From assembly GCA_001593685.1 (NCBI GenBank), contig LUKI01000003.1, forward strand, positions 7,384 to 71,383: a DNA stretch of 64,000 bases, written 5' to 3'. Shown piece after piece: positions 5,806-53,934 of this stretch. A model generated the notes under the pieces. The model saw only the letters and a list, made by a program, of their open reading frames with translations. It was not told the origin of the DNA and searched no databases. The position numbers and the translations under genes are program-made. The stretch's first letter is position 1. The number at the start of each line of letters is the position of its first letter. Origin of the DNA: Gammaproteobacteria bacterium F7. GTDB taxonomy: Bacteria; Pseudomonadota; Gammaproteobacteria; Pseudomonadales; IMCC2047.

Positions 5806-5827
5806 GGTTCACCTCGTAAAAATGGTC

Positions 5828-5858: not shown

Positions 5859-5891
5859 ACCCGTTTAGCTAGCTAAAAAGACTGTTTCCGC

Positions 5892-8112: not shown

Positions 8113-8329
8113 CGCTCACCAAGCAAAACAAAAAAATCCACGCTACAAATGCGTTATCCGATGAGTTAATCGGCGCGAAATAAAAAAACTTTAATACCAA
8201 TACAGCTTTATCTACCCATCTTTAAGGCCCTGTTGTTCACTAAAAACACCTATCGAAGTTCGGCGCTTTACGGTAGGATGCAACCTCAAATTCAGCCCCA
8301 TTTATTATTCAAATTCTGATCCAAAAGTT

Positions 8330-9361: not shown

Positions 9362-9393
9362 TCGCGATAACCTATTAACATTAGGGAAAATGG

Positions 9394-10032
9394 ATGTCTG
9401 AACCAACTTCAAAAGCGTCATCAATGATGGCTAACCGCTTCCGCGGCTACCTGCCTGTTGTGATTGATGTGGAAACCGGCGGCTTTAACGCCGCCACCGA
9501 TGCCCTGCTGGAGATCGCCGCCGTTCCCATTCAAATGGATGAGCAGGGGTTACTCTATCCAGGGGAAACGCTCTCTTTTCACGTAAAACCCTTTGAAGGC
9601 GCCAACATTGAAGAAGCTGCCATTAAGTTCACCGGCATCGACCCATACCACCCATTAAGAATTGCCAACACTGAGCAGGAAGCCATGGATGGCATCTTCC
9701 GCACTGTTCGAAAAGCCGTGAAAGCAAGCGGCTGCAAACGTGCAATTCTGGTCGGCCATAATGCTCATTTCGATCATGGTTTTGTTAATGCTGCTGCCGA
9801 ACGCTGCGACATCAAACGCAATCCTTTCCACCCTTTTTCAAACTTTGACACCGTTAGCCTGGCAGGATTAGCTGTTGGCCAAACCGTATTAGCCAGAGCC
9901 TGCGAGGTCGCTGAAATCGAATTCAGCAACGAAGAGGCTCACTCTGCCCGCTACGATACGGAAAAAACCGCCGAATTATTCTGTTTCATCGCCAATCGCT
10001 GGCGCGAATTGGGCGGCTGGCTGGGCGAATAA
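9394..10032 (+). CDS. rnt: Ribonuclease T
   Basis: [18 protein letters not shown]...[13 protein letters not shown]...[14 protein letters not shown]; DEDDh exonuclease motifs of RNase T. Confidence 0.93.
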
Positions 10033-36929: not shown

Positions 36930-37715
36930 ATGAGCAATCACCGTATTCATCCCAGCGCCATCATAGCCGATAACGTCACACTGGGCGAAAACATCAGTAT
37001 TGGCCCCTTCGCCATCATCGAAGACAACGTCACACTGGGTGACAACTGCACCATTGATGGCCACGCCATTGTTCATAGCCATACAATAATGGGCGACAAT
37101 AATCATGTTTACCCACAGGCGGTCATTGGCGGTCTGCCTCAGGATTTGAGTTTCGATCCCAGCATCGTCACCACCACGCTCATTGGTGATAACAACAGCT
37201 TCCGCGAAGGCGTTACCATCAGCCGTGGCTCAGCCGCCAGCGGTACCACACAGGTTGGCTCAAACTGTTATTTTATGAACAATGCCCATGTCGCCCATGA
37301 CTGCATAGTGGGTGACAACAATATTTTTGCAACCAGTGCCACGTTAGGTGGCCACGTGGTAGTTGGCAGTCGCGTTTTCTTTGGCGGCGGAGCCATGGTG
37401 CATCAGTTCTGCCGAATCGGCTCCTTTGCCATGATTGCCGGTGTTATTGGCGTGCGTAAAGATGTGATGCCCTACACACTCATCGGCGGCCAACCCGTCA
37501 AACACTACCGCCTTAACACCATCGGCCTGCGCCGTGCCGGAATTACTGGTGACCGCTATAAAGCCCTATCCAAGGCCTTTCGCTGCCTCAAAGATAACCA
37601 GCCGCTGGCAGATGATATCCCAGACACGGACGAAATTGTGCACTTAAAGCATTGGTTGGCAGCCGATTCAGACCGAGGTATCTACGGTTTCGCCTCACCT
37701 AATCACGATCAGTAA
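36930..37715 (+). CDS. lpxA: LpxA-like acyl-ACP--UDP-N-acetylglucosamine O-acyltransferase (stand-alone copy)
   Basis: Left-handed beta-helix hexapeptide repeats, NNAHVAHDC (catalytic His region), MVHQFCRIG, and ...NTIGLRRAG.... Confidence 0.75.
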   Translation: MSNHRIHPSAIIADNVTLGENISIGPFAIIEDNVTLGDNCTIDGHAIVHSHTIMGDNNHVYPQAVIGGLPQDLSFDPSIVTTTLIGDNNSFREGVTISRGSAASGTTQVGSNCYFMNNAHVAHDCIVGDNNIFATSATLGGHVVVGSRVFFGGGAMVHQFCRIGSFAMIAGVIGVRKDVMPYTLIGGQPVKHYRLNTIGLRRAGITGDRYKALSKAFRCLKDNQPLADDIPDTDEIVHLKHWLAADSDRGIYGFASPNHDQ

Positions 37716-37768
37716 CGGTCACGCCGAGCACCTCCTGTGACTGCAACGCTAAAAAATAGACACTGACC

Positions 37769-37984
37769 ATGTGGAATCCCGTCCAATCACTGCAAAAAAC
37801 GGCCAATCCCGAAGGCTATAAACGCTGGCAGTGCTTGGCCTGTAGTTATGTTTACGACGAAGCCAAAGGCTGGCCTGATGATGGCATCGCACCCGGTACG
37901 CGCTGGCAGGACGTGCCGGATGATTGGGTTTGCCCAGAATGCGGGGCAACAAAAGATGATTTTGAGATGATCAGAATCGGCTAA
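37769..37984 (+). CDS. Rubredoxin
   Basis: [12 protein letters not shown]...[14 protein letters not shown]: two CxxC knuckles in the canonical rubredoxin context. Confidence 0.9.
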
Positions 37985-38075
37985 TCTAGCCTTACCTCGA
38001 CTAAAGTCGATTAAGCCAGCAATTTTTCTACGTTATACTGTTTGAACACCGCCAATCACTCATTGGAAGGCCAGC

Positions 38076-39065
38076 ATGTTTAACGCCCTCGTCGCCCAAC
38101 AAACAGGCAAAACCGTCACCTGCCGCTTTGAACAATGGGACAACTGCCAACTTCCGGACCATCCGATACTGGTTAAAGTTTCTCATTCCAGTATTAACTA
38201 CAAAGATGCGCTGGCCGTCACCAATCGCGGCAAAATTCTACGCAGTTTACCGATGGTGCCGGGCATTGATCTTGTCGGAAATGTTGTTGAATCAGCCAGC
38301 ACTGACTTTCAACCCGGCGATACCGTTGTACTCTGCGGTGGAGGGTTAGGTGAAGATTACTGCGGCGGCTTTGCCGAATATGCGCGTGTTCCCGCTGAAC
38401 CGCTGGTTAAACTGCCCGCCACAATGAGTCCGAAAGATGCAATGGCTGCAGGCACCGCAGGTTTCACCGCTATGTTATGCGTACTGGCGCTACAGGATGC
38501 CAGTATTAAGACTTCTTCCGGCAGCATCATTGTATCCGGTGCATCCGGTGGCGTTGGCAGCGTAGCCATCGCTATTTTGGCGCGTTTAGGCTATTCGGTC
38601 ACGGCCATCAGCGGACGTCCAGAACACAGCGGGTTTTTAAAGCAGCTAGGTGCCTCAGAAGTTCTGCCAAGAGAAGCGTTTCAGGAACCCGCAAAGCCGC
38701 TGGAACCCCAGCGCTGGGCGGGCGCCATTGATACTGTTGGCGACAACCTGCTTGCTAAACTGCTCGCTCAAATCAATTATGCCGGCGCCGTAGCCAGCTG
38801 TGGTCTGGCCGGTGGCCATCAACTAAACACCACCGTCATGCCCTTTATTTTACGTGGCGTAAAACTGCTCGGTATCAACTCAACCTACGTTGACAACCCG
38901 CTACGCCAGCGCGCCTGGCAGCAATTGGCTGACGTTCTCGATCACCGTTTCTGGGCAAGCATTAGCCAGACTATCGGCTTTCAAGCCATTCCGGAATATT
39001 CGGAAAAGCTGCTGGCTGGAGAGGTGCGCGGGCGGATAATTGTCGATATGAACAGCGCTGAATAA
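38076..39065 (+). CDS. acuI: YhdH/AcuI-family acrylyl-CoA reductase (MDR oxidoreductase)
   Basis: Alignable along its full length, from memory, to E. coli YhdH (...SSINYKDALAVTNRGKILRSLPMVPGIDLVG...GTAGFTAMLCV...VSGASGGVGS...). Confidence 0.85.
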   Translation: MFNALVAQQTGKTVTCRFEQWDNCQLPDHPILVKVSHSSINYKDALAVTNRGKILRSLPMVPGIDLVGNVVESASTDFQPGDTVVLCGGGLGEDYCGGFAEYARVPAEPLVKLPATMSPKDAMAAGTAGFTAMLCVLALQDASIKTSSGSIIVSGASGGVGSVAIAILARLGYSVTAISGRPEHSGFLKQLGASEVLPREAFQEPAKPLEPQRWAGAIDTVGDNLLAKLLAQINYAGAVASCGLAGGHQLNTTVMPFILRGVKLLGINSTYVDNPLRQRAWQQLADVLDHRFWASISQTIGFQAIPEYSEKLLAGEVRGRIIVDMNSAE

Positions 39066-39071
39066 GCACCC

Positions 39072-39956
39072 TTATTCAGTCTTTAAAAACCCTGTTACCG
39101 CCGCCATAAACAAATCAAACTGGTCATGGTGCAACCAATGACCTGCATCGGTAAAATTCATCACTTCAGCCTGTCGAAAATACGCAGCACGGCCATCCTT
39201 CGCGGGATCACTCGCCCAACTGTCCTCGCCGCGCATAAGCAACACCGGGCAATCAATGTTTTGCCACAGCAGCTGACTGTCACGACCACTCATATCAAAG
39301 GGCTGATGCGCGCGCAGCAAGGGATCAAATTTCCAGCTAAAACTGCCATCGTCATTCTCACGACTGCCATGAATTGCCAGATGCCGTGCGTAGCTCTCTG
39401 TCAAATGACTGTTGGCCTCATGCATACGCTTGATCGCCTCTTCCTGGCTGGCATATCGGCGATGCGGCCGTTTGACAATGCGCTGCATCTGCTTCACCCA
39501 GCGTGTCAATTTCTGCGCGGGCGGTGCTTCGTTTTCATCAACCATTTTCTGCGGCGGCACCAGGCCTTCAATGATCACCAGTTGCTTCACTTTTTCAGGA
39601 AAAGCCCCGGCATATTTCAAAGTAATCGCGCCGCCTAACGAGTGGCCAACAATGGACACCGGCGATAATGCCAGCTGATCGATCAATTCCGCCATATCGC
39701 AGACATAATCAGCCATCGAATAGGCGTTACCTCCGGACCACTCAGAGTCACCATGTCCTCGCAGATCAGGCGTAATAACACGATAATCATTACACAACTG
39801 CGAAGCCGCCCAATCCCAGCTGCGGCAATGGTCAAAACCGCCATGCACCAACAGTAAGGGTGGTGCCTCTATATTTCCCCAATCACGATAATGTAACCGT
39901 AAACGGGTGGATTCGATAAATTTGGATGTCGCTCGGGCCGCGTTATCAATACTCAT
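39072..39956 (-). CDS. Alpha/beta-fold hydrolase
   Basis: ...PPLLLVHGGFDH... and the nucleophile elbow GHSLGG; 294 aa. Confidence 0.85.
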   Translation of the reverse strand: MSIDNAARATSKFIESTRLRLHYRDWGNIEAPPLLLVHGGFDHCRSWDWAASQLCNDYRVITPDLRGHGDSEWSGGNAYSMADYVCDMAELIDQLALSPVSIVGHSLGGAITLKYAGAFPEKVKQLVIIEGLVPPQKMVDENEAPPAQKLTRWVKQMQRIVKRPHRRYASQEEAIKRMHEANSHLTESYARHLAIHGSRENDDGSFSWKFDPLLRAHQPFDMSGRDSQLLWQNIDCPVLLMRGEDSWASDPAKDGRAAYFRQAEVMNFTDAGHWLHHDQFDLFMAAVTGFLKTE

Positions 39957-40046
39957 CTGCGCAGCTTACCGCGATTGCCAAGTCAAAAAAAATAGCTAAT
40001 ATTCAATTTCAGTCATAATTTCAAAAACTGCCCGTGAGAGCCAACC

Positions 40047-40232
40047 ATGACCGAAAAAACAACCCTGCCCTACACTAAGAAAGAATTTATCTATGAATGC
40101 TGTTTACGCGGCTTGCAAGGCAGCCTCGCCAACCCCAACCAACAGGCCTCCATTGCCAGCTTGGTTCGTGATGCTGAAAAACTTTGGGAAGAACTGCAGG
40201 AGTGGGAACAACAAAACGCAGCACGGGAATAA
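40047..40232 (+). CDS. Hypothetical small protein (61 aa)
   Basis: ORF only, with a weak SD. It lies between the hydrolase gene and the intI 3' end. Confidence 0.25.
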   Translation: MTEKTTLPYTKKEFIYECCLRGLQGSLANPNQQASIASLVRDAEKLWEELQEWEQQNAARE

Positions 40233-40276: not shown

Positions 40277-41242
40277 TCAAATCATATTATCTGCCGGGCT
40301 ACGCACTCCTTTACCACCTTTATTAAGCACGTGGGTATAAATCATCGTTGTCGCCACATTGGCATGCCCCAGTAATTCCTGAACCGTACGAATATCGTAG
40401 CCGGCTTCAAGCAGCTGTGTCGCGAAACTATGACGCAAAGTGTGGCAAGTACAACGCTTCATAATGCCAGCAGCTTTGGCACCGTTAGCAATGGCACGCT
40501 GAACAGGCTTATGATGAATATGATGACGCCCGCGGTGACCACTACGTGGGTCAATAGAAAGTGCGTCCGAAGGAAAAATAAATCGCCAGCGAAAGTCTTT
40601 ACCCGCATTCGGGTACTTACGCAGCAACGCCCCCGGCAAATTAATAAAGGTGATGCCGTTTGCCATGTCACGCTCAAATAAATCACGCGCCTTAATCCGT
40701 TGCTTCTCCATGCCTGTAACGGCTCGCTCAGGAAACATAGTGACCCGATCCTTGTTGCCCTTTCCAGCACGGACAATTAACTCTTTACGAGCAAAGTCAA
40801 CATCCATAATACGAAGCCTCAACGCCTCATTCAAACGCAATCCTGCTCCGTACATTAACAGCGCTAACGTAAAATAAGGTTCCTTAAGGCACCGCAAAAC
40901 AGCTTCCACCTCAGCTTTGGTCAGAACCGTTGGCAACCGCCTGGGTTTCTGAGGCCTGATAACGTCCGGCAACTCCCCAATCTCTTTACCCAGAATCTCT
41001 CGGTATAAAAAAACCAACGCATTAAGCGCCTGATTCTGAGTGGCCACAGCGACATGCTCATTAACCGCTAAATTTGTCAGAAAGGAGGCTATTTCAGGCC
41101 CACCCATATCCCGCGGGTGGCGCTTCTGATGAAAAAAGATGAATCGTTTGACCCAATGACAGTAAGCTCTTTCAGTCGCCAACGCATAGTGCTTGTAACG
41201 TAATTTTGCTCGCAACTGATCCAACAATTTTGGTGATGTCAT
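40277..41242 (-). CDS. intI: Integron integrase
   Basis: 321 aa; ...YALATERAYCHWVKRFIFFH...NQALNALVFLY...GAGLRLNEALRLRIMDVDF..., the IntI-specific insertion (...PGALLRKYPNAGKDFRWRFIFPS...), and then HTLRHSFATQLLEAGYDIRTVQELLGHANVATTMIYTHV. Confidence 0.95.
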   Translation of the reverse strand: MTSPKLLDQLRAKLRYKHYALATERAYCHWVKRFIFFHQKRHPRDMGGPEIASFLTNLAVNEHVAVATQNQALNALVFLYREILGKEIGELPDVIRPQKPRRLPTVLTKAEVEAVLRCLKEPYFTLALLMYGAGLRLNEALRLRIMDVDFARKELIVRAGKGNKDRVTMFPERAVTGMEKQRIKARDLFERDMANGITFINLPGALLRKYPNAGKDFRWRFIFPSDALSIDPRSGHRGRHHIHHKPVQRAIANGAKAAGIMKRCTCHTLRHSFATQLLEAGYDIRTVQELLGHANVATTMIYTHVLNKGGKGVRSPADNMI

Positions 41243-41264
41243 GGTATTCGCCTCCCTGCAAACA

Positions 41265-41280
41265 CTGTTTATTCATACAG
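41265..41280. promoter_or_regulatory. LexA (SOS) box upstream of intI
   Basis: CTGTttattcatACAG (CTGT-N8-ACAG, context caCTGTTTATTCATACAGtt), 23-38 nt upstream of the intI start codon. Confidence 0.7.
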
Positions 41281-41426
41281 TTAAAATAAATCAATAACAG
41301 TACTCTGTACAGAAAATATTACTGCATTATTGGGCAAAACCACGCAACCAACTGTTTTTAAATGATTTTTACGTGTCCGTTTTTGTAAGGATTTTGAGGA
41401 TATCGGTACTTCACAAAATTTGTATA

Positions 41427-41455
41427 TTGAAAACAGCAAAAAGGACACGTACGAT
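41427..41455 (+). promoter_or_regulatory. Candidate cassette promoter (Pc-like) in the attI region
   Basis: TTGAAA, a 17-nt spacer, then TACGAT, reading toward the cassettes. Identified by sequence pattern only. Confidence 0.3.
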
Positions 41456-41569
41456 ATTGAGATCAAACCGCTAAGGAGTAGCGTAAGCCTATGAATTTAA
41501 ATGGATTCCCACCTTTTCGCCCACTGTCACCTATAACATATTATGGGACAAACGGGTCCATATCCCACT

Positions 41570-41576
41570 GTTATGT
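41570..41576 (+). other. attI recombination core (GTTATGT; crossover G|TT at 41570/41571)
   Basis: It has the same 7-mer as the R' cores of attC1 and attC5. The following TTATGT is the exact complement of the R'' (ACATAAC) that closes cassette 1. Confidence 0.65.
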
Positions 41577-42029
41577 GTACTCATTGATACTCGGCGTGTT
41601 ACGGGCGACTTGAACTTTCTCTAAAAAGGAATAAGCATCCTCAAGTAAGTCTGTTGGCAAATTCATACTTTTATTAAAGTCAATTCTAGCTGTAAGCGTT
41701 TCGAACATGTTGAATTTATTATTCATTTTAGCATCCGCTTCCGGCGTTCCAGTTGTGTCGATTACACTCCCATCACTATTAACCTTTAGAAGTGGCGGGG
41801 GGAGGAATGCTGAGCTTAAATCACCCTCGCCAGCTTTCATTAAGGCGCTGGCAAGAGCCATTGACTCGTTGTAGTTCATATTCTTTGGGTCAAATGTTTC
41901 GGCAAGTTCACGAGCTAGCGGTTGGTTGGATTGTGTGTTGCCAGTCATCGTTGTTTGGGGCGGCATATTGTTGCCGCTTTTTTGTGTTGGTGTTATAGCT
42001 GAAGTCGCTATTGCACTTCCAATTTGCAT
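41571..42029 (-). CDS. Cassette 1 ORF, antisense to the array; hypothetical 152-aa protein
   Basis: ORF with a low-complexity N-terminus (TSAITPTQKSGNNMPPQTTMTGNTQSNQ) and no recognised family. Its stop codon is the TTA of the attI/R' core. Confidence 0.5.
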   Translation of the reverse strand: MQIGSAIATSAITPTQKSGNNMPPQTTMTGNTQSNQPLARELAETFDPKNMNYNESMALASALMKAGEGDLSSAFLPPPLLKVNSDGSVIDTTGTPEADAKMNNKFNMFETLTARIDFNKSMNLPTDLLEDAYSFLEKVQVARNTPSINEYT

Positions 42030-42102
42030 GGTTAGCCCCTAGTATCATTAGTTAAAAATTAAGTGTTGCAAGGTGTATGCCATTAAACTAGTGAAGCCAA
42101 AC

Positions 42103-42186
42103 ACATAACAAGTGCAGGCACGGCGACGCCTACTACATTGCGCCTTCGGCTCCATTTCGCAGGCGCGCATGCTGCAAGCGTTATGT
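42103..42186 (+). repeat. attC site 1 (84 bp)
   Basis: R'' ACATAAC (42103-42109) ... R' GTTATGT (42180-42186); arms ACATAACAAGTGCAGGCA / ATGCTGCAAGCGTTATGT are imperfectly complementary. Confidence 0.8.
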
Positions 42187-42271
42187 GATTGGTGGACAAT
42201 TCATACCCATTGGGGCTAAAATGCCCGCTCGCGGCTGCACATGAATTTCAGTCAACTTTAGAGAAAATACG

Positions 42272-42703
42272 ATGATTGTAGAAAATGTGCTTCCTGAAAA
42301 CTACGCAGAAATGCTTAGTGTTTGGGAAAATTCAGTCCGAGCAACTCATGACTTCATAATAGAAGAAGATATTGAGTTTTTTAAACCAATTATCATTGAG
42401 CAGGCTTTTCCTGCTGTCACGTTAAGATGTGTGAAAAATGAAAGTGGTTCAATTTTAGGTTTCGTGGGTATCCACGACTCAAAGGTTGAAATGCTGTTCA
42501 TCTTAAACGAGGTAAGAGGGCAAGGTGTTGGTAAGGTGCTACTGCAATACGCAATAGAGCAGTTAGGCGTAACCAAAGTCGATGTAAACGAACAAAACCC
42601 GCAAGCGGTAGGTTTCTACGAGCATATGGGTTTCAAAGTTGTTTCTCGCTCGCCGCTTGATGATATGGGAAAACCTTTTCCAATTCTGCATATGACACTT
42701 TAA
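42272..42703 (+). CDS. Cassette 2: YjaB-like GNAT N-acetyltransferase
   Basis: ...VWENSVRATHDFI...VDVNEQNPQAVGFYEHMGFKVVSRSPLDDMGKPFPILHM closely parallels E. coli YjaB as I recall it (...CRSVDATHDFL...NVNEQNEQAVGFYKKVGFKVTGRSEVDDLGKPYPLLNL). Confidence 0.85.
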   Translation: MIVENVLPENYAEMLSVWENSVRATHDFIIEEDIEFFKPIIIEQAFPAVTLRCVKNESGSILGFVGIHDSKVEMLFILNEVRGQGVGKVLLQYAIEQLGVTKVDVNEQNPQAVGFYEHMGFKVVSRSPLDDMGKPFPILHMTL

Positions 42704-42786
42704 AGCTCGGTTTGTCGTAACCAGTTTGTCAGAAGAAACGCCCAAGGCTAATAACTTTGGGCGTTTCCGTATGCGGCGAAAAAATC

Positions 42787-42913
42787 ACATAACAAAGCGT
42801 TTAAGACGGATTCCCAACGCTTGGCATTTTCAGTTTGAATCGGCTTTAGTGTTTACGGCACAATAGCTTAGGTCTGGTGGTAGCGTTGCTCACCACTTAA
42901 CGCGGCGTTAGCT
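42787..42913 (+). repeat. attC site 2 (127 bp)
   Basis: R'' ACATAAC (42787-42793) ... R' GTTAGCT (42907-42913); arms ACATAACAAAGCGTTTAAG / CTTAACGCGGCGTTAGCT. Confidence 0.75.
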
Positions 42914-43183
42914 GTCACAGTCACCATCGCAATAAGCTCTGCATGTAATGCAATACCCAAACTCCTGCGTTAACGCTCGCATCGTGTCTGCAGTGGGATT
43001 ACCGTTTAGCGATTGATCCCAACTCAATACAAGAGCATCGAGCAATCGCCCAAATGTACCAGCGTTTTTATAGCACTGAGTTTCTAATCTCTGGTTTTTA
43101 TCGACCAGAGCAGCAACGCAGTATTCCAAACCGGCTTTGTCGTGATTTTGTTCGCAAATAGTACATTTCATAGCATTTTTCAC
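42908..43183 (-). CDS. Cassette 3 ORF, antisense to the array; Cys-rich 91-aa protein
   Basis: CTIC near the N-terminus and CITCRAYCDGDC at the C-terminus. The stop codon is the TTA of the R' core GTTAGCT. Confidence 0.45.
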   Translation of the reverse strand: MKNAMKCTICEQNHDKAGLEYCVAALVDKNQRLETQCYKNAGTFGRLLDALVLSWDQSLNGNPTADTMRALTQEFGYCITCRAYCDGDCDS

Positions 43184-43207
43184 ACTCGGTAAAATTGGTC
43201 AATTAAC

Positions 43208-43265
43208 AGCTAACAAGTCATTCGTGCGGGACGGCTATCGCCGCCCCTCAATTCAAGCGTTAAAA
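43208..43265 (+). repeat. attC site 3 (58 bp)
   Basis: R'' AGCTAAC (43208-43214), the exact complement of the cassette-3 start TTAGCT ... R' GTTAAAA (43259-43265). Confidence 0.8.
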
Positions 43266-43288
43266 GTCACAGACACGTTGGAGGTATT

Positions 43289-43927
43289 TTGAAAGGTCCT
43301 AGCCCTGAAGATAAAGAACCCATGAAAGGGTTTCCTCAAGTAGGATATTTGAAGAATTACATTTCGTCTGAAAATATCATCGTCGGTGACTATACCTATT
43401 ACGATGATCCTGAAGGCCCAGAACGATTTGAAAGCAATGTGCTTTATCATTTTCCATTTATTGGAGATAAGCTCCTGATAGGAAAATTTTGCGCCATCGC
43501 AAAAGACGTAAAATTCATCATGAATGGCGCTAACCATAAAGTTTCCGGATTTTCTACATACCCATTCCAAATATTTGGTAATGGTTGGGAGAAGGTCATG
43601 CCCAAAGAGGGCGATCTGCCCTATAAAGGCGATACGGAAATCGGGGATGATGTTTGGATAGGCTATGAAGCTACAATCATGCCAGGAGTCAAAATTGGCA
43701 GCGGTGCAATTATAGCAAGTAAGTCTATTGTGACAGCTGATGTCCCGGCATACAGCGTAGTTGGTGGCAATCCTGCCAAAGTAATCAAATACCGATTTAA
43801 TGAAAACACAATCAATGAGCTCCTGGAAATCGCGTGGTGGGATTGGAGTGCAGAAAAAATTACTGAAAATCTAGAATCAATAGTCGGTTGTGACCTGATT
43901 GCACTTCGGAATGTAAGTGACTTTTAA
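43289..43927 (+). CDS. vat: Cassette 4: Vat-family streptogramin A O-acetyltransferase (xenobiotic acetyltransferase, hexapeptide repeat)
   Basis: ...[12 protein letters not shown]...[49 protein letters not shown]...[29 protein letters not shown]...[25 protein letters not shown] is nearly colinear with VatD as I recall it. The TTG start lies 5 nt after GGAGG. The stop TAA lies inside R''. Confidence 0.88.
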
Positions 43928-43969
43928 CAAAGCATTGCAGCGGACAAGCCGCTGAATGCGGCGTTAGGA
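43922..43969 (+). repeat. attC site 4 (minimal, 48 bp)
   Basis: R'' TTTTAAC (complement of the cassette-4 start TTAAAA), stems GCATT-G-CAGCGG / CCGCTG-AATGC, a 5-nt loop, and R' GTTAGGA. Confidence 0.7.
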
Positions 43970-43973
43970 CAAG

Positions 43974-44582
43974 ATGATGGAATCATTAAATAGCTTGCCC
44001 ATTATTGAAATTCTCACAGGTGCTCTCGTAGTGATTACGGGGTTCTACGCTTGGGCAACCTACCATATCTTGAAGGCCAACAAGCGTGTTGTTGACGTGA
44101 TGCAGGAGCAGAATGAGGCTATGAGCCGCCCATACGTTACAATTTCGCCGAAGTTGGAACCCGACAACCCGATTTTCTATCTCACGATTTGCAACACAGG
44201 GCGCACGTCTGCACGTAATTTAAGGCTTACCCTTGATAAGTCTTTCCATAAGTTTGGCGAAAAAAATCCAGACAGTGATTTGGCAGCTTGCGCCGCCTTC
44301 ACTCAACCAATAGAGGCTTTTTCGCCTGGTTCTGAAATGACCTTTTCTTTGGCGCAGGGATTCGTAGTCTTCGCTCAAGACGCAGATGATTCGTTAATGC
44401 CAAAGAAATTTACAATTCATGCCGAATATGAGTACGGCGTAGATAGGGTGGTCAAAGAGTCGCATATTATTGATTTGCGTCCGTACTTGGGAGCAGATGT
44501 TCCGCAGGAAGCCCTAATACGAAAAATGAAAGACCTGATTAAGGCATTAGAAAAAATTGCCTCAAATGTCAAAAAGTCCTAA
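43974..44582 (+). CDS. Cassette 5: hypothetical protein with an N-terminal TM helix (202 aa)
   Basis: ORF fills the cassette. TM helix LPIIEILTGALVVITGFYAWATY. The stop TAA lies inside R'' TCCTAAC. Confidence 0.55.
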   Translation: MMESLNSLPIIEILTGALVVITGFYAWATYHILKANKRVVDVMQEQNEAMSRPYVTISPKLEPDNPIFYLTICNTGRTSARNLRLTLDKSFHKFGEKNPDSDLAACAAFTQPIEAFSPGSEMTFSLAQGFVVFAQDADDSLMPKKFTIHAEYEYGVDRVVKESHIIDLRPYLGADVPQEALIRKMKDLIKALEKIASNVKKS

Positions 44583-44654
44583 CAATCGGCTGCACAGCGA
44601 CCGATTTTCCGCCGCTTCGCGGCTCCAAACCGGCGCGTGAGCCGGGCGTTATGT
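44577..44654 (+). repeat. attC site 5 (78 bp)
   Basis: R'' TCCTAAC (complement of the cassette-5 start TTAGGA) ... R' GTTATGT (44648-44654). Confidence 0.8.
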
Positions 44655-44669
44655 GTCCATGAGCATCAG

Positions 44670-44966
44670 ATGAAGTTTACTTACAGGAATGCAAACAAAG
44701 TACTTTGGGTATGCTTTTGGCTACTTCTGGCTTTGTCTCTTGTATTACATTTTTCAAACAATGAGAAACTGGCATATTTTTCAATGTCTTTCTTACTTGT
44801 TGTTTGGGGAGGCCGGTCTGTATTGGAGTATTTGTTCAATCAAGAAATCACCCTGACGCTTCATCATGTTAAGCCAACCGCTAGCAGTATTGAACGCAAT
44901 ATACATTTCGCACTATCAATAGGCATAATGGGGGCTGGCATATGGTTTCTAATAAGCAACACATAA
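44670..44966 (+). CDS. Cassette 6: small multi-TM membrane protein (98 aa from the ATG at 44670)
   Basis: Three hydrophobic segments. The track ORF begins at a GTG inside attC5, so I prefer the first in-frame ATG. The stop TAA lies inside R'' ACATAAC. Confidence 0.45.
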   Translation: MKFTYRNANKVLWVCFWLLLALSLVLHFSNNEKLAYFSMSFLLVVWGGRSVLEYLFNQEITLTLHHVKPTASSIERNIHFALSIGIMGAGIWFLISNT

Positions 44967-45048
44967 CAAAACGGTCAATGATCGCCTACGGCTGGACAAC
45001 TTTAAGCGCTGCTTCGCAGCAAAGTTGCCCATTACCTTGGCGTTAAAC
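44961..45048 (+). repeat. attC site 6 (88 bp)
   Basis: R'' ACATAAC (44961-44967) ... R' GTTAAAC (45042-45048); arms ACATAACAAAACGGTCAATG / CCATTACCTTGGCGTTAAAC. Confidence 0.8.
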
Positions 45049-45057
45049 ACTAAAGAT

Positions 45058-45387
45058 ATGATAGATATTTGTACCCGTTGTGGAAAACGAAGCAAACTTG
45101 GAGTTAGTTTCAAAATATCTCCCTTGGATGCCGTAGGCTTCGTATTTTTATTATTAGTTTCAACTGTTCCTATATGGTTAATCTCATTCATCGTTACAGT
45201 TATTGCAACGACAAGTGAAGACGGAGGGCCATCGCCACTTGTCTTATCTATCGTTACTTGTTTTTACTTTGTTTTATTCGGTAGCAAACTCGCAAAATTC
45301 ATAAGTTTATTTATAAATTACAAATTCTTATTCCGGTCTTACTGCAAAGACTGTGATGTAGAGTTTCTGCGCAAGGAACTACCATAA
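45058..45387 (+). CDS. Cassette 7: small membrane protein with a split CxxC...CxxC (zinc-ribbon-like) pair (109 aa)
   Basis: MIDICTRCGK... at the N-terminus and ...YCKDCDVEF at the C-terminus, flanking two or three TM helices. The ATG at 45058 is preferred. Confidence 0.45.
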   Translation: MIDICTRCGKRSKLGVSFKISPLDAVGFVFLLLVSTVPIWLISFIVTVIATTSEDGGPSPLVLSIVTCFYFVLFGSKLAKFISLFINYKFLFRSYCKDCDVEFLRKELP

Positions 45388-45388
45388 T

Positions 45389-45429
45389 GTTTAACAAGTG
45401 ACTATGGCGTCACGCCCTGAGCGTTAGAT
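45389..45429 (+). repeat. attC site 7 (atypical, 41 bp, possibly a hybrid or deleted site)
   Basis: R'' GTTTAAC (complement of the cassette-7 start TTAAAC) and R' GCGTTAGAT are present. The arms pair only through GTGAC/GTCAC, and the spacers are asymmetric. Confidence 0.45.
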
Positions 45430-45628
45430 ACCCTAGCTGCTCTGAATTCGATAGGATTTATAAGAGACTTGTTTAATTAAAAGTTAAATTATCAATCGGC
45501 AACTAAAATAAAAACAACTGTGATTTTGTCGTAAAAGCAAATACTTAGTATGAAGCTTGAAAAAATGCTGGATCAAGCAAGTGGTTTAAAATTTTCAAAA
45601 GATCAATTATTTAGCCAAGGAGAAAATA

Positions 45629-46249
45629 ATGAAACAGATTATAGTATTGGCGTTCACTGCCCTCGTTACCAGCATGTCGGTGCATGCAGTAGATGACTTA
45701 GAGGCTCTATATCAGTCAGTCATACCAAAATCTAGTGAATGCTATTCTGCAAAACTTAAAAACTCCGCTGCTGTAGCATGTAACACCTCATGCGGTGAGG
45801 CCGTCGTGAATTTACGTTTGCTTGTAAATGGTATTCCTCAACCACTTCCTGAGAAAGTGAAACAACAAGTTTCCAAATGTGAATTTGATTATTCAGCATA
45901 CGCAGCTGCGACGGCTGGATATAAGGAATCTCAAGTAAAAGGCGTATTGATAAATCCAGAAAGTCTCGGGACGGTAAAGAATAGCAAGATACAAGATCAG
46001 GTAACTAAAGACTCTTATGCATCATTAAAAACTGAACTGGCCGAGTTGGAAAAAGTTTGTGCTAATGCTGATCAAAATCGGCATTCAAAGAATTGTGTGA
46101 AATTCTGCAATAACGCCATATTAGAGCTACAGAAAATCAATACGAATGACGAAAACATTAAACAAGCAATGAAAAATGCGAGAGGCAATGTTGAGAAACT
46201 TCCTTCCGTTCGGCAATGCCGTCTGCGGCATAAATTAGCAACTAGATAA
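45629..46249 (+). CDS. Cassette 8: secreted protein with two copies of a 4-Cys module (206 aa)
   Basis: Signal peptide MKQIIVLAFTALVTSMSVHA, good SD (AAGGAGAAAATA-ATG), and Cys spacing C-x12-C-x3-C... repeated twice. Confidence 0.55.
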   Translation: MKQIIVLAFTALVTSMSVHAVDDLEALYQSVIPKSSECYSAKLKNSAAVACNTSCGEAVVNLRLLVNGIPQPLPEKVKQQVSKCEFDYSAYAAATAGYKESQVKGVLINPESLGTVKNSKIQDQVTKDSYASLKTELAELEKVCANADQNRHSKNCVKFCNNAILELQKINTNDENIKQAMKNARGNVEKLPSVRQCRLRHKLATR

Positions 46250-46418
46250 GATTTTAGGCGTAAATGAAAACCACAGATATTAATCGTGATCGAGGCCAAT
46301 TCAGTTTACTTCGTCGCATGACACCTAACAAGGCTAAGCACTCGGACTATAAAATGAATTTGTTCTTTGCTCCCTACCCTAGAAAAGTAGCTTTTACTAC
46401 GCATTGTATATCCATGTT

Positions 46419-46489
46419 TTATAACAAGTAGCTGTACAGGAAAAATAATTCGCTTTGCTCGCCATTTTCCGGCGAGCTAGGCGTTAAGT
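46419..46489 (+). repeat. attC site 8 (71 bp as the inner option; an alternative 5' arm lies at 46323)
   Basis: R'' TTATAAC (46419-46425) ... R' GTTAAGT (46483-46489); TAGCT/AGCTA pairing. A second 5'-arm-like ACCTAACAAGG lies at 46323-46333. Confidence 0.6.
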
Positions 46490-46567
46490 GTATTAGAAGC
46501 GCAAATTATGCGCCCGTAATGTAAATAATCCATTTCTCCCGTTGCACTCATCAAAGGAATTGAAACT

Positions 46568-47119
46568 ATGCAGGCATACAATATTTTAACAATCAGCACG
46601 GCATTACTGTTAGCCAGTATCAATACAGCGTATGCAGACCTTCTTAATGTGGAATTACGTAAGGCTTATTCAGAATGTAAAACAGCGCAACAGGCATGTG
46701 AATCCACCTGCAAGCAGGCTGTCATCGCAAGAAAAAAAGCCTCGACTAATGCCGAAGATAAGACCCAACAATGCATTGCCGAACATCGTCAGCAGTTTCG
46801 CGGATCAGCAATCAAACAGAAAAGTGAAGGTCCGTTAATAGATGGCTTCGCTTGGATGCCAGACGTAACTGGCACCTATATGCGCCCAGGCCGAGGCATG
46901 TCGTATGTAATTGACGTCCCGGGCAATAAAGACTGGACAAACCTCTGTAAGGGAGAAGCAATAATCAACCCTGAAAATGCTCAGCAGATTCGAACCACAT
47001 TAAGAAACTCACCCAAAGCCATTCCCCAAAAAACGACTTTGAAACTTAGCAAAATCCAGTATCACACAGCCCCCGGTCAAGCTAAATGCTTTTTCTCTGA
47101 AATTGAGGTATTGGAATAG
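46568..47119 (+). CDS. Cassette 9: secreted protein with one 4-Cys module plus a distinct C-terminal domain (183 aa)
   Basis: Signal peptide ...ALLLASINTAYA, SD AAGGAA, and the motif SECKTAQQACESTCKQAVI, similar to the cassette 8 protein. Confidence 0.55.
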   Translation: MQAYNILTISTALLLASINTAYADLLNVELRKAYSECKTAQQACESTCKQAVIARKKASTNAEDKTQQCIAEHRQQFRGSAIKQKSEGPLIDGFAWMPDVTGTYMRPGRGMSYVIDVPGNKDWTNLCKGEAIINPENAQQIRTTLRNSPKAIPQKTTLKLSKIQYHTAPGQAKCFFSEIEVLE

Positions 47120-47152
47120 TTTGAACAAAACTCAGTTAGAACAGATTCTAAT

Positions 47153-47229
47153 ACCTAACAAAAGCAGGCAGCGGCAACAGCAAACCGCCGCTCACTCTGG
47201 CTGTCGCCCCTCTGCTTCTAGCGTTAGGG
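47153..47229 (+). repeat. attC site 9 (77 bp), the last in the array
   Basis: R'' ACCTAAC ... R' GTTAGGG; arms ACCTAACAAAAGCAGGCAGCGG / CTCTGCTTCTAGCGTTAGGG. Confidence 0.8.
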
Positions 47230-47650
47230 CCAAGAGCAACCTGCATGGAGCTTAAAGCTTATATCAAAACACTCATTACGGCAGAATCCGAAATAACCTA
47301 CATAAATAGATTCACAAACTAGCGAGACCGCGAACGAAAATTGAGACTGGCATTTTGTCGTTTTTGTCAATGAAGAAGTAATATCGAGCAACCCTAAAAA
47401 TAAACCGTCATCATACCAATGTAGAGTATTGGTTGTATTTTACGAAGATCACTTTAGAACCCCACCACAGGACCGATCTCGGGCACACTTTGCTATCACG
47501 TTTGACTGCCGTGAATTATTGTTGCTCTATGATTGCTTTAGATTTTTTAAATCCTCAATAAATCCTCGACCAACGGTTATTGCTCTTTGATAATAGCGTC
47601 ACCCCTTCTATGGGGTTTTATCATCACTAATCGATTAAAAAGGCGGCGTA

Positions 47651-47995
47651 ATGGATCACAACACTCCCACCCCTGAAATAACCCAAGACTCAAAAAATTT
47701 AGCCCTGATCACCTGGATTGCCACACTGTTTTTTGGCTTTATCCCCGGCTTAATCATCTATCTCGTTAAAAAAGATGATGCCTACCTATTCGATCAAGCT
47801 AAAGAATCACTAAACTGGTCAATTACCGCAATATTAGCTTACCTGGCTGCCATGCTGCTTAGCTTGATTGTTATTGGCGTTTTTTTAATGCCCATTATTG
47901 GTATTTGCCATTTAATATTTTGCATCATGGGGGTTATTGAATCATCAAAGGGTAAGACGTTCCGAGTGCCCTTTGCCATTCGGTTAATAAAATAA
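47651..47995 (+). CDS. DUF4870-like small membrane protein
   Basis: ...NLALITWIATLFFGFIPGLIIYLVKKDD.Y....AKESLNWSIT... is the layout I associate with DUF4870 proteins; 114 aa. Confidence 0.65.
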   Translation: MDHNTPTPEITQDSKNLALITWIATLFFGFIPGLIIYLVKKDDAYLFDQAKESLNWSITAILAYLAAMLLSLIVIGVFLMPIIGICHLIFCIMGVIESSKGKTFRVPFAIRLIK

Positions 47996-48173
47996 CACTT
48001 ATCGCCTGGGGTTTATTAATAGGCCTCAGGCTACCTATGCTAAAACATCAAAAAACAACAATTACCTATAATAATTACAACAACTTAGCTCAGCATTAAT
48101 CAAAAAAGCGCAAGATTTATAAGGCTTTAGTGGGCTACAATAGTTAAATCGAAATCACCAAGAGATCAGTCCA

Positions 48174-48611
48174 GTGACAAGGAACTGTTGCAAAGTATTT
48201 GTGCTCTCGTTAGTTCTATTATCTGGTTTTTTCTCAGCGGCCTTTAGCTATGCTGAAGTTGTCATCATTAACAGCCAAAACCCTTTGACCTCTGTTGACC
48301 GCAACGAACTGCGGGCAATTTTCAGCATGCAACACACGCAATGGAAAGACGGCTCATTAATCAAAGTGTTTGTTTATGAGGACAGATATCCCATACACCA
48401 AAAATTTTGTAAAAACGTTTTAGAGATATTTCCTTACCAATTACGTAAAAATTGGGATCGCCTAATTTATTCAGGTACAGGAAAAGCACCGGCACTGGTG
48501 AAAAATAAAGAGGAAATGCTCCGCGTTATCGCGGCAACACCTGGCGCCATCGGCTATATTGATGAGAGAGGTACGGGTCATGGTGTCAAAACTGTTCCGG
48601 TTGAAAAATAA
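48174..48611 (+). CDS. Small periplasmic PBP-like (PstS-like fragment-type) protein
   Basis: Signal peptide, then ...VVIINSQNPLTSVDRNELRAIFSMQHTQWKDGSLIKV...PGAIGYID, typical of short 'phosphate ABC substrate-binding-like' proteins. GTG start. Confidence 0.6.
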   Translation: MTRNCCKVFVLSLVLLSGFFSAAFSYAEVVIINSQNPLTSVDRNELRAIFSMQHTQWKDGSLIKVFVYEDRYPIHQKFCKNVLEIFPYQLRKNWDRLIYSGTGKAPALVKNKEEMLRVIAATPGAIGYIDERGTGHGVKTVPVEK

Positions 48612-48648
48612 TACCAACCAATGTTCAAAGCAGCCTGCGAAATCAATA

Positions 48649-49842
48649 ATGAAGCATAATTTTTTAAATTCCGCCCTACTCCTTGTTTGCGGCAGTGTAA
48701 ATAGCGCACTGGCGGCTGACGATACCAGCTGGACAGATCGCCTTCAGATACATGGCTTTTTAACGCAGGGATATATTAATACCAACCATAATAACTGGTT
48801 TGGTGATAGTGAGGACGGCAGTTTTGAGTTCACCGAAGCAGGCCTCAATACTCGCCTGCAGCTAACCTCTAACCTGTCCGCCTCTGCACAGATTCTGTCG
48901 CGTCGAGCTGGCGAAATGGATAATGGCTCACCACATTTAGATTATGGCTTTTTTAGCTACCAGCTATTCGAAGGTCGCGCCGGTGAATTAGGCTTCCGTG
49001 TGGGTAGAATTAAAAATAAATTTGGTCTCTATAACGATACCCGAGATGTTGCTGCAACCCGTCCCGGGGTATTTATGCCTCAATCCATTTACTTTGACCG
49101 CGTCAGAAACGTTCTTTTATCATCCGACGGCCTGAGCGCGTTTGGCGGTATGAATTTTGATAACAGTTCCATCACTTTCAACGTCAATGTAGGTAAATTT
49201 CCTACGGATAAAAACATTAAAGCCACATTTATTGGCGAGAACCTGCCTGGCTCACTCGATAGCGACGAAAAGAATGTGACCTCAAGCTTGCTATATGAGT
49301 ATGATGCGGGCCGCATTCGTATCGCACTTTCCAATGTGAACTACACGCTACGCTTTAATGCCCAACCCGGCCCTATTTTCAGTGACGGCTATATTGATGG
49401 CGACATTCGTATTTTATCGGCCGAATATAATGCCGAACGCTGGAGCTTTACCGCTGAATACTCGCGCCAACCGATTTACTACAACGGTATTTCACCGGTC
49501 TTTGAAACACTGGACGGTGAAGCAGAAGCTTACTATGTCCAGGCATTACACCGTTTTTCTAACCGCTGGTCTTCCTGGCTTCGCTACGAGGCTTCGTTCC
49601 GGGATAAGGATGACAAGAGCGGTAAAATGCGCGGACCGGCCAGTGGGCAGCCACCCCACTCCACATTTACAAAATCCTGGGTAGCAGGCGTACGTTGGGA
49701 CGTTAGCCGTAACCTTATGGTCAGTGCCGAGTACCACCGAAATGACGGCACCTTCATTTTATCCCGGGTTGATAATCCACCCTCAACGCCAACCGATCCT
49801 GAATGGGACATTTTTGCGCTACTAGTCTCTTACCGTTTTTAA
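48649..49842 (+). CDS. Outer-membrane beta-barrel (porin-like) protein
   Basis: ATG at 48649, signal peptide ...VNSALAADD, alternating beta-strand pattern, and the terminal ...LLVSYRF (C-terminal Phe OMP signature). Confidence 0.6.
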   Translation: MKHNFLNSALLLVCGSVNSALAADDTSWTDRLQIHGFLTQGYINTNHNNWFGDSEDGSFEFTEAGLNTRLQLTSNLSASAQILSRRAGEMDNGSPHLDYGFFSYQLFEGRAGELGFRVGRIKNKFGLYNDTRDVAATRPGVFMPQSIYFDRVRNVLLSSDGLSAFGGMNFDNSSITFNVNVGKFPTDKNIKATFIGENLPGSLDSDEKNVTSSLLYEYDAGRIRIALSNVNYTLRFNAQPGPIFSDGYIDGDIRILSAEYNAERWSFTAEYSRQPIYYNGISPVFETLDGEAEAYYVQALHRFSNRWSSWLRYEASFRDKDDKSGKMRGPASGQPPHSTFTKSWVAGVRWDVSRNLMVSAEYHRNDGTFILSRVDNPPSTPTDPEWDIFALLVSYRF

Positions 49843-49866
49843 CAAACACCTGACGGCATTCACCGA

Positions 49867-52680: not shown

Positions 52681-52814
52681 TCGGCCCACTCAACCCAATA
52701 AAACCGTATACGGCCTGATGGGGCATTTTGCGCCCTAATGACAACGCACAGTTTAAGCCGCCACGACAATCGTGTAACGTACTAAACACACCCCCACAAA
52801 ACTCAGGAGTCATT

Positions 52815-52976
52815 ATGGACAACAAACTCGTCTTGATTGTGATCGCCATCCTGCTTGCGCCACTGGCTGTATTCCTTAAAAAAGGGGCCGGTAAGGATCT
52901 CGTTATTAACCTTATCCTATGCCTGTTTTTCTACTTCCCCGCCGTCTTACATGCGCTTTGGGTTGTCACTCAGTAA
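52815..52976 (+). CDS. YqaE/Pmp3-family small membrane proteolipid
   Basis: MDNKLVLIVIAILLAPLAVFLKKG...NLILCLFFYFPAVLHALWVV; the ATG at 52815 follows a CAGGAG SD. Confidence 0.8.
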   Translation: MDNKLVLIVIAILLAPLAVFLKKGAGKDLVINLILCLFFYFPAVLHALWVVTQ

Positions 52977-52999
52977 GCAAGCCTCCACGGAGACCGGAA

Positions 53000-53359
53000 A
53001 TGAAAGCACACGAAAAAATTAATTATCTGGAATTTCCGGCCTCCAAACTGAGTGCTACCAAGGCCTTCTTCACAAACGTCTTTGGTTGGGCGTTTACCGA
53101 CTACGGACCAGATTACAGCGCCTTTTCCGAGGCCAGTGTTGATGGTGGTTTTTATCGCGCCGACCTTGCGTCACAAACTCGACATGGTGCCGCACTGGTG
53201 GTCTTTTACAGCGAACAACTGGAAGCAACACAGGAAAAAATCTGCGCCGCAGGTGGTCTGATTATCAAACCGATTTTTGAACTCCCTGGCGGCCGTCGTT
53301 TTCATTTCAGCGAACCCAGCGGTAATGAATTTGCGGTCTGGTCGGACGTACAGGCATAA
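53000..53359 (+). CDS. VOC (glyoxalase/bleomycin resistance) family protein
   Basis: ...INYLEFPA..L..TKAFF..VFGW.F.DYGP.Y..F...PGGRRFHF.EPSGNEFAVWS; ATG at 53000. Confidence 0.8.
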   Translation: MKAHEKINYLEFPASKLSATKAFFTNVFGWAFTDYGPDYSAFSEASVDGGFYRADLASQTRHGAALVVFYSEQLEATQEKICAAGGLIIKPIFELPGGRRFHFSEPSGNEFAVWSDVQA

Positions 53360-53402
53360 TCCGCCTCTCTACACACGCACCGCAAAATAAGCGAACAAGC
53401 CC

Positions 53403-53735
53403 ATGCCTGAACTTAAAACCCTACTGTTGTTTTTGGTGACCGCCGTTGCCGAAATTGTTGGCTGCTACCTACCCTATCTGTGGTTACGGGAAGGAAAAAC
53501 AATTCTGCTGTTAATACCCGCGGCCATTAGCCTGGCCTTGTTTGCCTGGCTATTATCGCTTCATCCAACGGCCGCCGGACGCGTTTATGCCGCCTATGGT
53601 GGGGTCTATATTTTTGCAGCCATTTTATGGTTATGGGCAGTGGACGGCATCAAGCCAACCAGTTGGGATTTAGTGGGCTCTGGCGTGGCATTACTGGGAA
53701 TGGCAATTATTATGTTCGCGCCAAGGAATGTTTAG
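53403..53735 (+). CDS. ynfA: YnfA (UPF0060) family membrane protein
   Basis: ...[19 protein letters not shown]...[12 protein letters not shown]...; 110 aa. Confidence 0.85.
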
Positions 53736-53934
53736 GGGGCTCGCCCCTTAGTCATCACGCTGAATACTTTTAGTTAATCTTAGAGGAGCCGGAAAGACGG
53801 CTCTCTTCGTTCGGGGTGACACGATAAAACATTGTCACTCCGAACCAATGTGAAAATTCTTTATCGCTAACCTGCCAGCAAAAACAACAACAAAACCTTA
53901 AGGCAGCCGAAACAGTTTCACGCTAAATACAGCC

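Follow-up and report, generated by a model that had tools for sequence, protein, structure and literature searches.

What kind of element occupies positions 40277-47229 of the 64,000-nucleotide (nt) stretch of Gammaproteobacteria bacterium F7 DNA analyzed here (contig LUKI01000003.1, positions 7,384 to 71,383; hereafter the window), where a recombinase gene on the minus strand is followed by nine units that each close in an inverted repeat? The region is very probably a complete integron at a conserved chromosomal site, composed of intI, attI and nine cassettes ending in attC sites. By established integron biology, recombination by the integrase IntI would take place at G|TT, between an attC in the form of its folded bottom strand and a partner site, either attI or a second attC. 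The folded attC would present an R box, an unpaired spacer, an L box with an extrahelical base and a variable tip, and cassettes would leave as circles and enter at attI. Five kinds of observation carry the predicted assignment here: the family and residues of the integrase, an attC architecture in which changes in the L box are compensatory, the exact cassette borders, the turnover of cassettes in this lineage, and the recurrence of three cassettes, with unchanged borders, in other genomes or contigs.

The intI gene (40277-41242, minus strand) encodes a 321-amino-acid (aa) protein that scores 428.2 bits against the TIGR02249 "integron integrase" model (cut-off 265), covering profile positions 1-315 of 315. 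It also matches Pfam PF13495 and PF00589, and it falls far below the cut-offs of the XerC and XerD models. Residues 8-318 align with VchIntIA (PDB 2A3V) at E 5.5e-83, and the protein's R136, H267, R270, H293 and Y302 all have aligned VchIntIA residues, as do W219, P232 and H240-H241. The VchIntIA counterparts of W219, P232 and H240-H241 reportedly hold the extrahelical bases of the folded attC. Not only does the protein align with IntI1 gap-free at 49% identity, its residues 190-245, the IntI-specific segment, also align gap-free to both VchIntIA and IntI1, with W219, P232 and H240-H241 conserved. The gene product is a full-length integron integrase, a tyrosine recombinase of the IntI clade, with the IntI-specific segment lying between patches II and III.

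The borders of the units can be read directly from the sequence. There are ten G|TTRRRY junctions, at 41571, 42181, 42908, 43260, 43964, 44649, 45043, 45424, 46484 and 47224. In each of cassettes 1-7, the six opening bases have a single reverse-complementary match within the cassette, the R'' core, at 42103, 42787, 43208, 43922, 44577, 44961 and 45389, respectively. With three of the six bases free, the chance of such a match is approximately 1/64 each, and by our own arithmetic seven matches among nine cassettes have a chance of approximately 1e-11. The R'' of cassette 8 reads TTATAAC against an expected ATCTAAC, two bases off, and that of cassette 9 reads ACCTAAC against an expected ACTTAAC, one base off. 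The motifs TAACAA and GCGTTA are unvarying across all nine attC sites, and on the plus strand of the 64 kb window 11 of the 34 occurrences of TAACAA and 10 of the 30 of GCGTTA lie within the 5.7 kb array. The forward open reading frames (ORFs) of cassettes 4, 5 and 6 use the TAA inside R'' as their stop codon (43925-43927, 44580-44582 and 44964-44966). An earlier note on this DNA, made from its letters alone, had proposed the nine cassette spans with their G|TT junctions, exact R'/R'' complementarity in cassettes 1-7, a deviation of one or two bases in cassettes 8 and 9, the TAACAA...GCGTTA signature, and the stop codons of ORFs 4, 5 and 6 within R''; these proposals held at every coordinate given. 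As a mirror of those three forward ORFs, the reverse ORFs of cassettes 1 and 3 stop on the cassette-opening TTA of G|TTRRRY (41571-41573 and 42908-42910).

The predicted attI (41500-41576, plus strand) lies next to the 5' end of intI, and insertion there would take place at G|TT, with the crossover between G41570 and T41571 and the R site GTTATGT at 41570-41576. With the relatives L083-L086, nucleotide homology extends from the flank across intI and the intergenic region as far as 41576, six bases past the crossover, where it ends. An exact 28-nt attI probe found 16 metagenome contigs, in which ten different sequences directly follow CACTG|TTA. The first cassette of the window is an eleventh sequence after the shared attI, unlike all ten others.

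The nine attC sites differ considerably in length. In order, they are attC1 (42103-42186, 84 bp), attC2 (42787-42913, 127 bp), attC3 (43208-43265, 58 bp), attC4 (43922-43969, 48 bp), attC5 (44577-44654, 78 bp), attC6 (44961-45048, 88 bp), attC7 (45389-45429, 41 bp), attC8 (46419-46489, 71 bp) and attC9 (47153-47229, 77 bp), the final site of the array, and their alignment has a mean column identity of 39%. Rfam at its gathering thresholds matched nothing anywhere in the window, and we noticed no attC family in Rfam, and covariance models were built from attC sites themselves. A model with trimmed arms (R1) failed on sites whose variable tips are long and was set aside for one that learns the insert (R2), seeded with eight of the window attC sites and with attC7 held out. 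Within the window, R2 returns its eight seeds and then attC7 as the top non-seed match (15.9 bits, E 0.34). As a positive control, it recovered both attC sites of the class 1 integron on the E. coli plasmid NZ_AP024115.1; it also recovered six repeats of a Vibrio campbellii array and eight sites of a relative's array, with the orientation correct throughout. On 80 foreign intI loci, 14 of its 15 matches were on the strand and side expected of the array. A further model (R3) was built only from 15 foreign sites, the R2 matches in the intI loci of other genomes. It detects eight of the nine window sites, with scores of 26.5-46.8 bits and E values from 6e-11 to 3e-5: attC1 at 31.1 bits (E 1.7e-6), attC2 at 38.7, attC3 at 29.5 (E 4.7e-6), attC4 at 46.8, attC5 at 45.5, attC6 at 26.5 (E 3.4e-5), attC8 at 31.8 (E 1e-6) and attC9 at 36.7 (E 4.3e-8). 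The ninth, attC7, is at 15.2 bits (E about 0.05); below it comes a match of 14.7 bits inside an ORF. The R'' of attC7, GTTTAAC, exactly complements the start of its cassette, TTAAAC. Beyond 47232, neither R2 nor R3 has an attC match within the window at E up to 10.

Three other places in the window resemble parts of an attC. The palindrome ACATAAC...TGTTAGG at 1706-1744 scores approximately 15 bits with both models and on both strands. It lies within an RND-adaptor ORF and was treated as a chance match, and since its score is on a level with that of attC7 it shows the noise floor of the attC models. An R''-like ACCTAACAAGG at 46323-46333, inside cassette 8, lies 96 bp upstream of the attC8 R'' and within a 55-aa ORF (46264-46431); neither covariance model supports it as an attC, and it may be the relic of a lost one, in which case cassette 8 would be two fused cassettes. 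Between attC9 and a DUF4870 gene are approximately 430 bp without a convincing ORF (47224-47650), in which CCCTAAA near 47394 differs by a single base from the complement of TTAGGG, the sequence next to attC9 on its downstream side. A decayed tenth attC near 47394 finds no support from either model, and 47224-47650 may be a decayed tenth cassette.

The pairing within the attC sites was examined by structural alignment and by folding. In the structural alignment, 90.9% of cells are paired in the given register, compared with 26-39% in slid registers, and the L box, which is interrupted by one unpaired base, shows compensatory changes in six of its seven pairs. When the attC sites were folded freely as they stand in the array, only four of nine gave the canonical hairpin, because there R' comes from the next cassette; the excised-circle form mended six of the nine. 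In that form, the bottom strands of attC1, attC2, attC4, attC5, attC6 and attC7 form a 7-bp R box and, beyond an unpaired spacer, a further stem, which is bulged except in attC7. In attC3 the circular form yields no more than the R box and tip; attC8 and attC9, because of their R''/R' mismatches, form no R box in the minimum-energy fold. Bottom-strand folding, a check that the earlier note had proposed, gave this full pattern in the six sites named. Together with the RYYYAAC/GTTRRRY core, these features show the R''-L''...L'-R' architecture of attC, with spacer and extrahelical base, attC7 being a borderline case.

Do the units move? Three of them recur in other genomes or contigs. Cassette 2, predicted at 42181-42907, is homologous over 42178-42910 (96.7% nucleotide identity) to DNA of Vibrio campbellii LJC015 on NZ_CP050465.1, a 2.06 Mb replicon filed as a plasmid, which we take to be the second chromosome. 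The match falls in a succession of Vibrio-type attC repeats, where the cassette 2 copy is flanked by typical Vibrio repeats, and attC2 is 71-77% like five neighboring ones. Cassette 4, predicted at 43260-43963, is homologous over 43260-43966 (84.6%) to a copy in Thiomicrorhabdus sp. Kp2 that sits within a run of small genes with further attC matches and has unrelated flanks. Cassette 5, predicted at 43964-44648, is homologous over 43961-44651 (99.3%) to copies in the unrelated metagenome contigs L092-L094, which have another gene and attC upstream and other DNA downstream. All three homologous spans end no more than 3 bases from the predicted G|TT borders, so that the borders of three cassettes are fixed independently of any model and the units are seen to move. 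The 43-nt core of attC4 is, in addition, 100% identical to an attC in the integron of a Desulfobacteraceae metagenome-assembled genome (L056, 6262-7146, minus strand), and hence the same attC is attached to two different genes. The L056 attC closes a cassette whose gene is unrelated, 274 aa long, and carries a CAP12/Pycsar effector TIR domain (PF10137, E 1e-37). Other attC likenesses are those of attC8, with approximately 81% similarity to the site that closes the first cassette in the class 1 integron on NZ_AP024115.1, and of attC1, 92% identical to an attC of L095/L103. Among 80 intI loci of GTDB representative genomes, in which the best IntI match has 62% identity, none shares a cassette with the window.

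The integrase side of the element, unlike its cassettes, is common to relatives. Homologues of IntI at 99%, 86% and 83% identity were found in metagenomes and in one 2.36 Mb NCBI contig, and intI, a 61-aa ORF, an alpha/beta hydrolase, a YhdH-family reductase, a rubredoxin and an LpxA-like gene are common to the window, L081, L083 and L111. The relatives with 83-86% identical IntI have arrays of wholly different cassettes, in which none of the window cassette proteins was found. Look-ups of the exact sequences of IntI, the YhdH-family reductase and the cassette 5 protein gave no match in the collection searched. The contig of L088, whose IntI is 99% identical, ends before attI and offers no array for comparison. 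Genes of the argG, argD, bioA, ggt and rhlE type surround the element, with housekeeping genes on both sides, and the GC content of the array is 0.38-0.45 compared with 0.48-0.53 in the flanks. The adjacent ORFs that were scanned (36930-40232 and 47651-55308) have no match to a transposase, resolvase or conjugation family. The element is chromosomal, with a position conserved across relatives, as in the locus of a sedentary integron.

Could something other than a resident, working integron account for the locus? That there is no integron at all, and that a Xer-like recombinase lies beside unrelated palindromic repeats such as repetitive extragenic palindromic (REP) elements or terminators, has next to no probability. 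Several attC stems do register as terminator-like hairpins in a simple scan, and Rfam has no family matching the region, but the integrase passes TIGR02249 and is far under the XerC/XerD cut-offs, the repeats have attC architecture with covariation and cross-detect genuine class 1 and Vibrio attC sites, and it is at the unit borders that homology with other genomes breaks off. Within the reach of sequence analysis, this explanation already stands refuted. The earlier note had itself named non-significant attC model scores, an integrase lacking the IntI-specific domain, and an array fixed across distant relatives as findings that would overturn an integron. Instead, eight of nine sites are significant under the foreign-site model (at the E values given above), the TIGR02249 cut-off is passed with the IntI-specific segment aligned without gaps, and the relatives hold wholly different cassettes at the same intI locus. 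Arrival of a mobile integron in the chromosome on a transposon, integrative and conjugative element or plasmid is very unlikely. The heterogeneity of the attC sites, both in sequence and in length (41-127 bp), and the shortness of the array are typical of mobile integrons, and one window attC resembles that of a class 1 cassette. However, the gene order on the intI side, together with homologous DNA, is found in several relatives (IntI 83-86%), the adjacent scanned ORFs are chromosomal and match no transposase, resolvase or conjugation family, and IntI is just 49% identical to IntI1.

More has to be said about a real integron that has become a fossil, in which intI is intact, the array is frozen and the cassettes are merely inherited, which we consider unlikely. 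Several of the observations that fit a fossil also count against the complete integron that we propose. Excision is known only by inference; attC7, just 41 bp long and with a chance-level score, appears degenerate, and cassettes 7 and 8 may for that reason no longer separate; attC8 and attC9 carry one or two R''/R' mismatches, their R boxes are imperfect, and neither forms an R box in its circular fold. A relic R''-like motif within cassette 8, at 46323, would likewise suit a fossil. Two further points weigh against our proposal from the side of method. The covariance models derive directly or indirectly from the window attC sites, and even the foreign-site model is for this reason only partly independent; the assignments of a promoter and a LexA site, described below, are based solely on consensus matches and conservation, with a promoter scan that is not enriched. 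Against a fossil, however, cassettes 5 and 2 occur elsewhere at 99.3% and 96.7% identity, which points to recent acquisition, the relatives at 83-86% IntI identity and the attI-sharing contigs all carry other cassettes, and the integrase is full-length with all catalytic residues present. A complete resident integron remains our preferred explanation, and present-day activity, that is, excision and integration catalyzed by IntI, would be expected of it; the cassette units that recur with unchanged borders in other arrays are indirect evidence for such activity.

What kind of integron would this be? The classic sedentary chromosomal integron usually has 20 or more cassettes. The window array has nine attC sites, and in place of a uniform species-specific attC it has sites of 41-127 bp with 39% mean column identity. 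The "sedentary array" of the earlier note therefore stands with respect to its chromosomal, fixed locus, and not with respect to the usual size and attC homogeneity. Nor does the element belong to the mobile classes 1-5: identity to IntI1, the only class integrase compared, is 49%, and the chromosomal locus is conserved. The array reads as a mosaic assembled, presumably, from several cassette pools. It shares with the Vibrio cholerae superintegron a chromosomal, lineage-conserved position, an intI divergent from the array, an IntI that aligns over its full length, a LexA-box-like site, and mostly function-unknown cassettes, and cassette 2 is itself a Vibrio-repeat-type cassette. Unlike the superintegron, it has nine cassettes in 5.7 kb rather than tens to hundreds, and heterogeneous attC sites rather than one species-specific repeat, the Vibrio cholerae repeat (VCR). 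With class 1 integrons it has in common the architecture, the TAAC...GTTA core, R' ends of the AAGC|GTTA type and heterogeneous cassette attC sites; the window-derived attC model finds both class 1 sites, one of which is the one that attC8 resembles. It differs from them not only in its integrase but also in lacking a Tn402/tni backbone, a qacEdelta1-sul1 3' segment and a plasmid context, and in being chromosomally fixed.

The integron system itself is well known, integrons being reported in about 17% of bacterial genomes (bioRxiv 10.64898/2026.03.17.712381), and the find is useful rather than surprising. It provides a cleanly delimited integron in which the borders of three cassettes are proven by comparison, so that exact units are available for cloning all nine, two of which encode members of conserved but unnamed protein families. 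It also illustrates how cassettes have recently passed between distant bacteria (cassette 2, 96.7% to Vibrio), and how a Vat-family resistance-type gene travels as a cassette with a 48-bp attC. Three aspects rise above the routine: the recent cross-genus cassettes, the mosaic array compared with the uniform array of a sister lineage, and, outside the window, orphan, duplicated attI-promoter modules without intI in related contigs.

The cassette proteins were screened against Pfam, NCBIfam, PADLOC models and PHROGs. A likely function can be predicted for only two of the cassette genes, those encoding a GNAT acetyltransferase (cassette 2) and a Vat streptogramin-type acetyltransferase (cassette 4). 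Neither Pfam nor NCBIfam has a match for the remaining seven proteins, in agreement with the earlier note, which could name no family for seven; two of these, those of cassettes 1 and 5, do belong to conserved, unnamed families. A hint in that note at phage defense found no support, as none of the ten cassette ORFs matches a PADLOC model at E up to 0.1. The PHROGs search gave acetyltransferase matches and weak matches only, and no toxin-antitoxin cassette was recognized among the nine.

Cassette 4 (43260-43963, plus strand) carries an ORF at 43289-43927 with a TTG start after GGAGG. Its product scores 312.6 bits against NF000311 (cut-off 300), also matches PF00132, and is predicted to be a Vat-family streptogramin A O-acetyltransferase. 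Its homologues at 80-90% identity, which NCBI names Vat family, occur in Thiomicrorhabdus, Vibrio, Sedimenticola, Halomonas, Shewanella, Rhodohalobacter and Desulfovibrio. Like the Vat and xenobiotic acetyltransferase cassettes, it is a hexapeptide-repeat acetyltransferase carried as an integron cassette; unlike the named alleles, it scores under the cut-off of every allele model from Vat(A) to Vat(I), and streptogramin activity is predicted only. The catB genes are also found as integron cassettes. Cassette 2 (42181-42907, plus strand), with an attC of the Vibrio-repeat type, carries the GNAT acetyltransferase ORF (42272-42703), whose product matches Pfam GNAT domains and scores 125.8 bits against NF007807, under the cut-off of 134.

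The two conserved unnamed families are those of cassettes 5 and 1, for which fold searches gave no convincing PDB neighbor. In cassette 5 (43964-44648, plus strand), the ORF at 43977-44582 encodes a 201-aa protein with at least 260 homologues of approximately 194 aa, all hypothetical and without a Pfam domain. Its AlphaFold2 (AF2) model, with a predicted local distance difference test score (pLDDT) of 86.9, has a long N-terminal (membrane) helix, a beta-sandwich and a C-terminal helix, and only weak PDB matches. Cassette 1 (41571-42180) contains a reverse ORF (41571-42029, minus strand, 152 aa) that is a genuine gene, with homologues in 36 representative clusters and conservation through its final residue. 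The AF2 core of its product has a pLDDT above 90 and is without a PDB neighbor.

For cassettes 3 and 6-9, the resources applied to each returned no homologue. Cassette 3 (42908-43259) has a putative reverse ORF (42908-43183, minus strand) for a Cys-rich protein of 91 aa, without a homologue in Pfam, NCBIfam, PADLOC, PHROGs or a tblastn search of plasmids. Cassette 6 (44649-45042, plus strand) would encode a small membrane protein, from a probable start at ATG 44670 to 44966, with no family match in Pfam, NCBIfam, PADLOC or PHROGs, and cassette 7 (45043-45423, plus strand), the one with the atypical attC, a CxxC...CxxC membrane protein with a probable start at ATG 45058, ending at 45387. Plasmid searches by tblastn for cassettes 8 and 9, and by blastn for cassette 1, were likewise without a match. 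The proteins of cassette 8 (45424-46483, plus strand; ORF 45629-46249, 206 aa) and cassette 9 (46484-47223, plus strand; ORF 46568-47119, 183 aa) are both Cys-rich, and by eye look secreted, with signal-peptide-like N-termini. They have in common a motif, C-x(5-11)-C-x3-C-xxAV(V/I), that occurs twice in cassette 8; BLASTP similarity between the two proteins is not significant.

How might the element be expressed? A LexA-box-like palindrome, ACTGTTTATTCATACAGT (41264-41281), lies 22-39 bp upstream of the intI start codon, and is the sole match to ACTGT-N8-ACAGT in the 64 kb window, where 0.02 would be expected by chance. The site is kept in three of four intI-bearing relatives (L088, L081 and L101) and is degenerate in L083; a LexA-type box there would put intI under SOS control. 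A candidate cassette promoter (Pc), TTGAAA-17-TACGAT (41427-41455, plus strand; nine of twelve matches in the promoter scan), faces the array, and the surrounding block, TTGTATATTGAAAACAGCAAAAAGGACACGTACGATATTGA, is almost invariant in eight related attI regions. The scan overall shows no enrichment over shuffled sequences, and the conserved candidate at 41427-41455 would drive expression of the cassettes. Downstream (41469-41613, plus strand) are a conserved hairpin, CGCTAAGGAGTAGCG (41469-41483), whose loop holds AAGGAG, and a short ORF (ATG 41491) that crosses attI into cassette 1. The hairpin and an ATGAA...AAATGGATTCC block are conserved in eight relatives, and may be candidate IntI binding sites or a leader ORF. 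A short ORF across attI is reminiscent of the ORF-11 leader of attI1.

An attI-plus-promoter module homologous to window 41292-41573 is found without an adjacent intI in L095 and L103 (Ga0070726_10000060 and Ga0209273_10000765), L096 and L106. Homology with these orphan modules begins only near 41300, so they lack the LexA box and the intI ribosome-binding site. L095/L103 have two copies of the module, separated by 4.1 kb and sharing 94-95% identity with the window; both are followed by their own run of attC-bounded cassettes, and ppsR-like and CbiM-like genes precede the second. In a relative with 86% identical IntI, L084, the array is composed of ten near-identical repeats, TAACAAGTGGGTCGTGCGGGAC...CCCTAAGCGTTA, nine of them as model matches of 76 nt and one truncated at 70 nt; by eye, attC3 alone among the window sites resembles this uniform repeat. 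A wider picture, which we hold as tentative and rather doubtful, is that a small position-fixed integron serves as an exchange hub sampling cassettes of distant lineages (those of a Vibrio chromosome-2 array and of Thiomicrorhabdus, with an attC in common with a Desulfobacteraceae integron), while a sister lineage keeps a uniform, home-made array. The orphan modules would then mean that an attI module can be detached and duplicated, and that an integrase from another locus can act on it in trans.

The relatives also differ from the window in smaller respects. In L083, L085 and L086 (IntI 86%), there is an extra aminopeptidase-like gene (PF10023, 346 aa; 3618-4658 in L083) between intI, whose 3' end it overlaps, and a 62-aa ORF; the window has no such gene. 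The same-locus array of L111 (GCA_942492345.1, CALOEK010000001.1; IntI approximately 83%) is longer than 10 kb, and within positions 1-10000 has immunity-like cassettes (Tsi6 and Imm32), an IS110 insertion, and larger genes for a Na/Ca exchanger and a formate/nitrite transporter.

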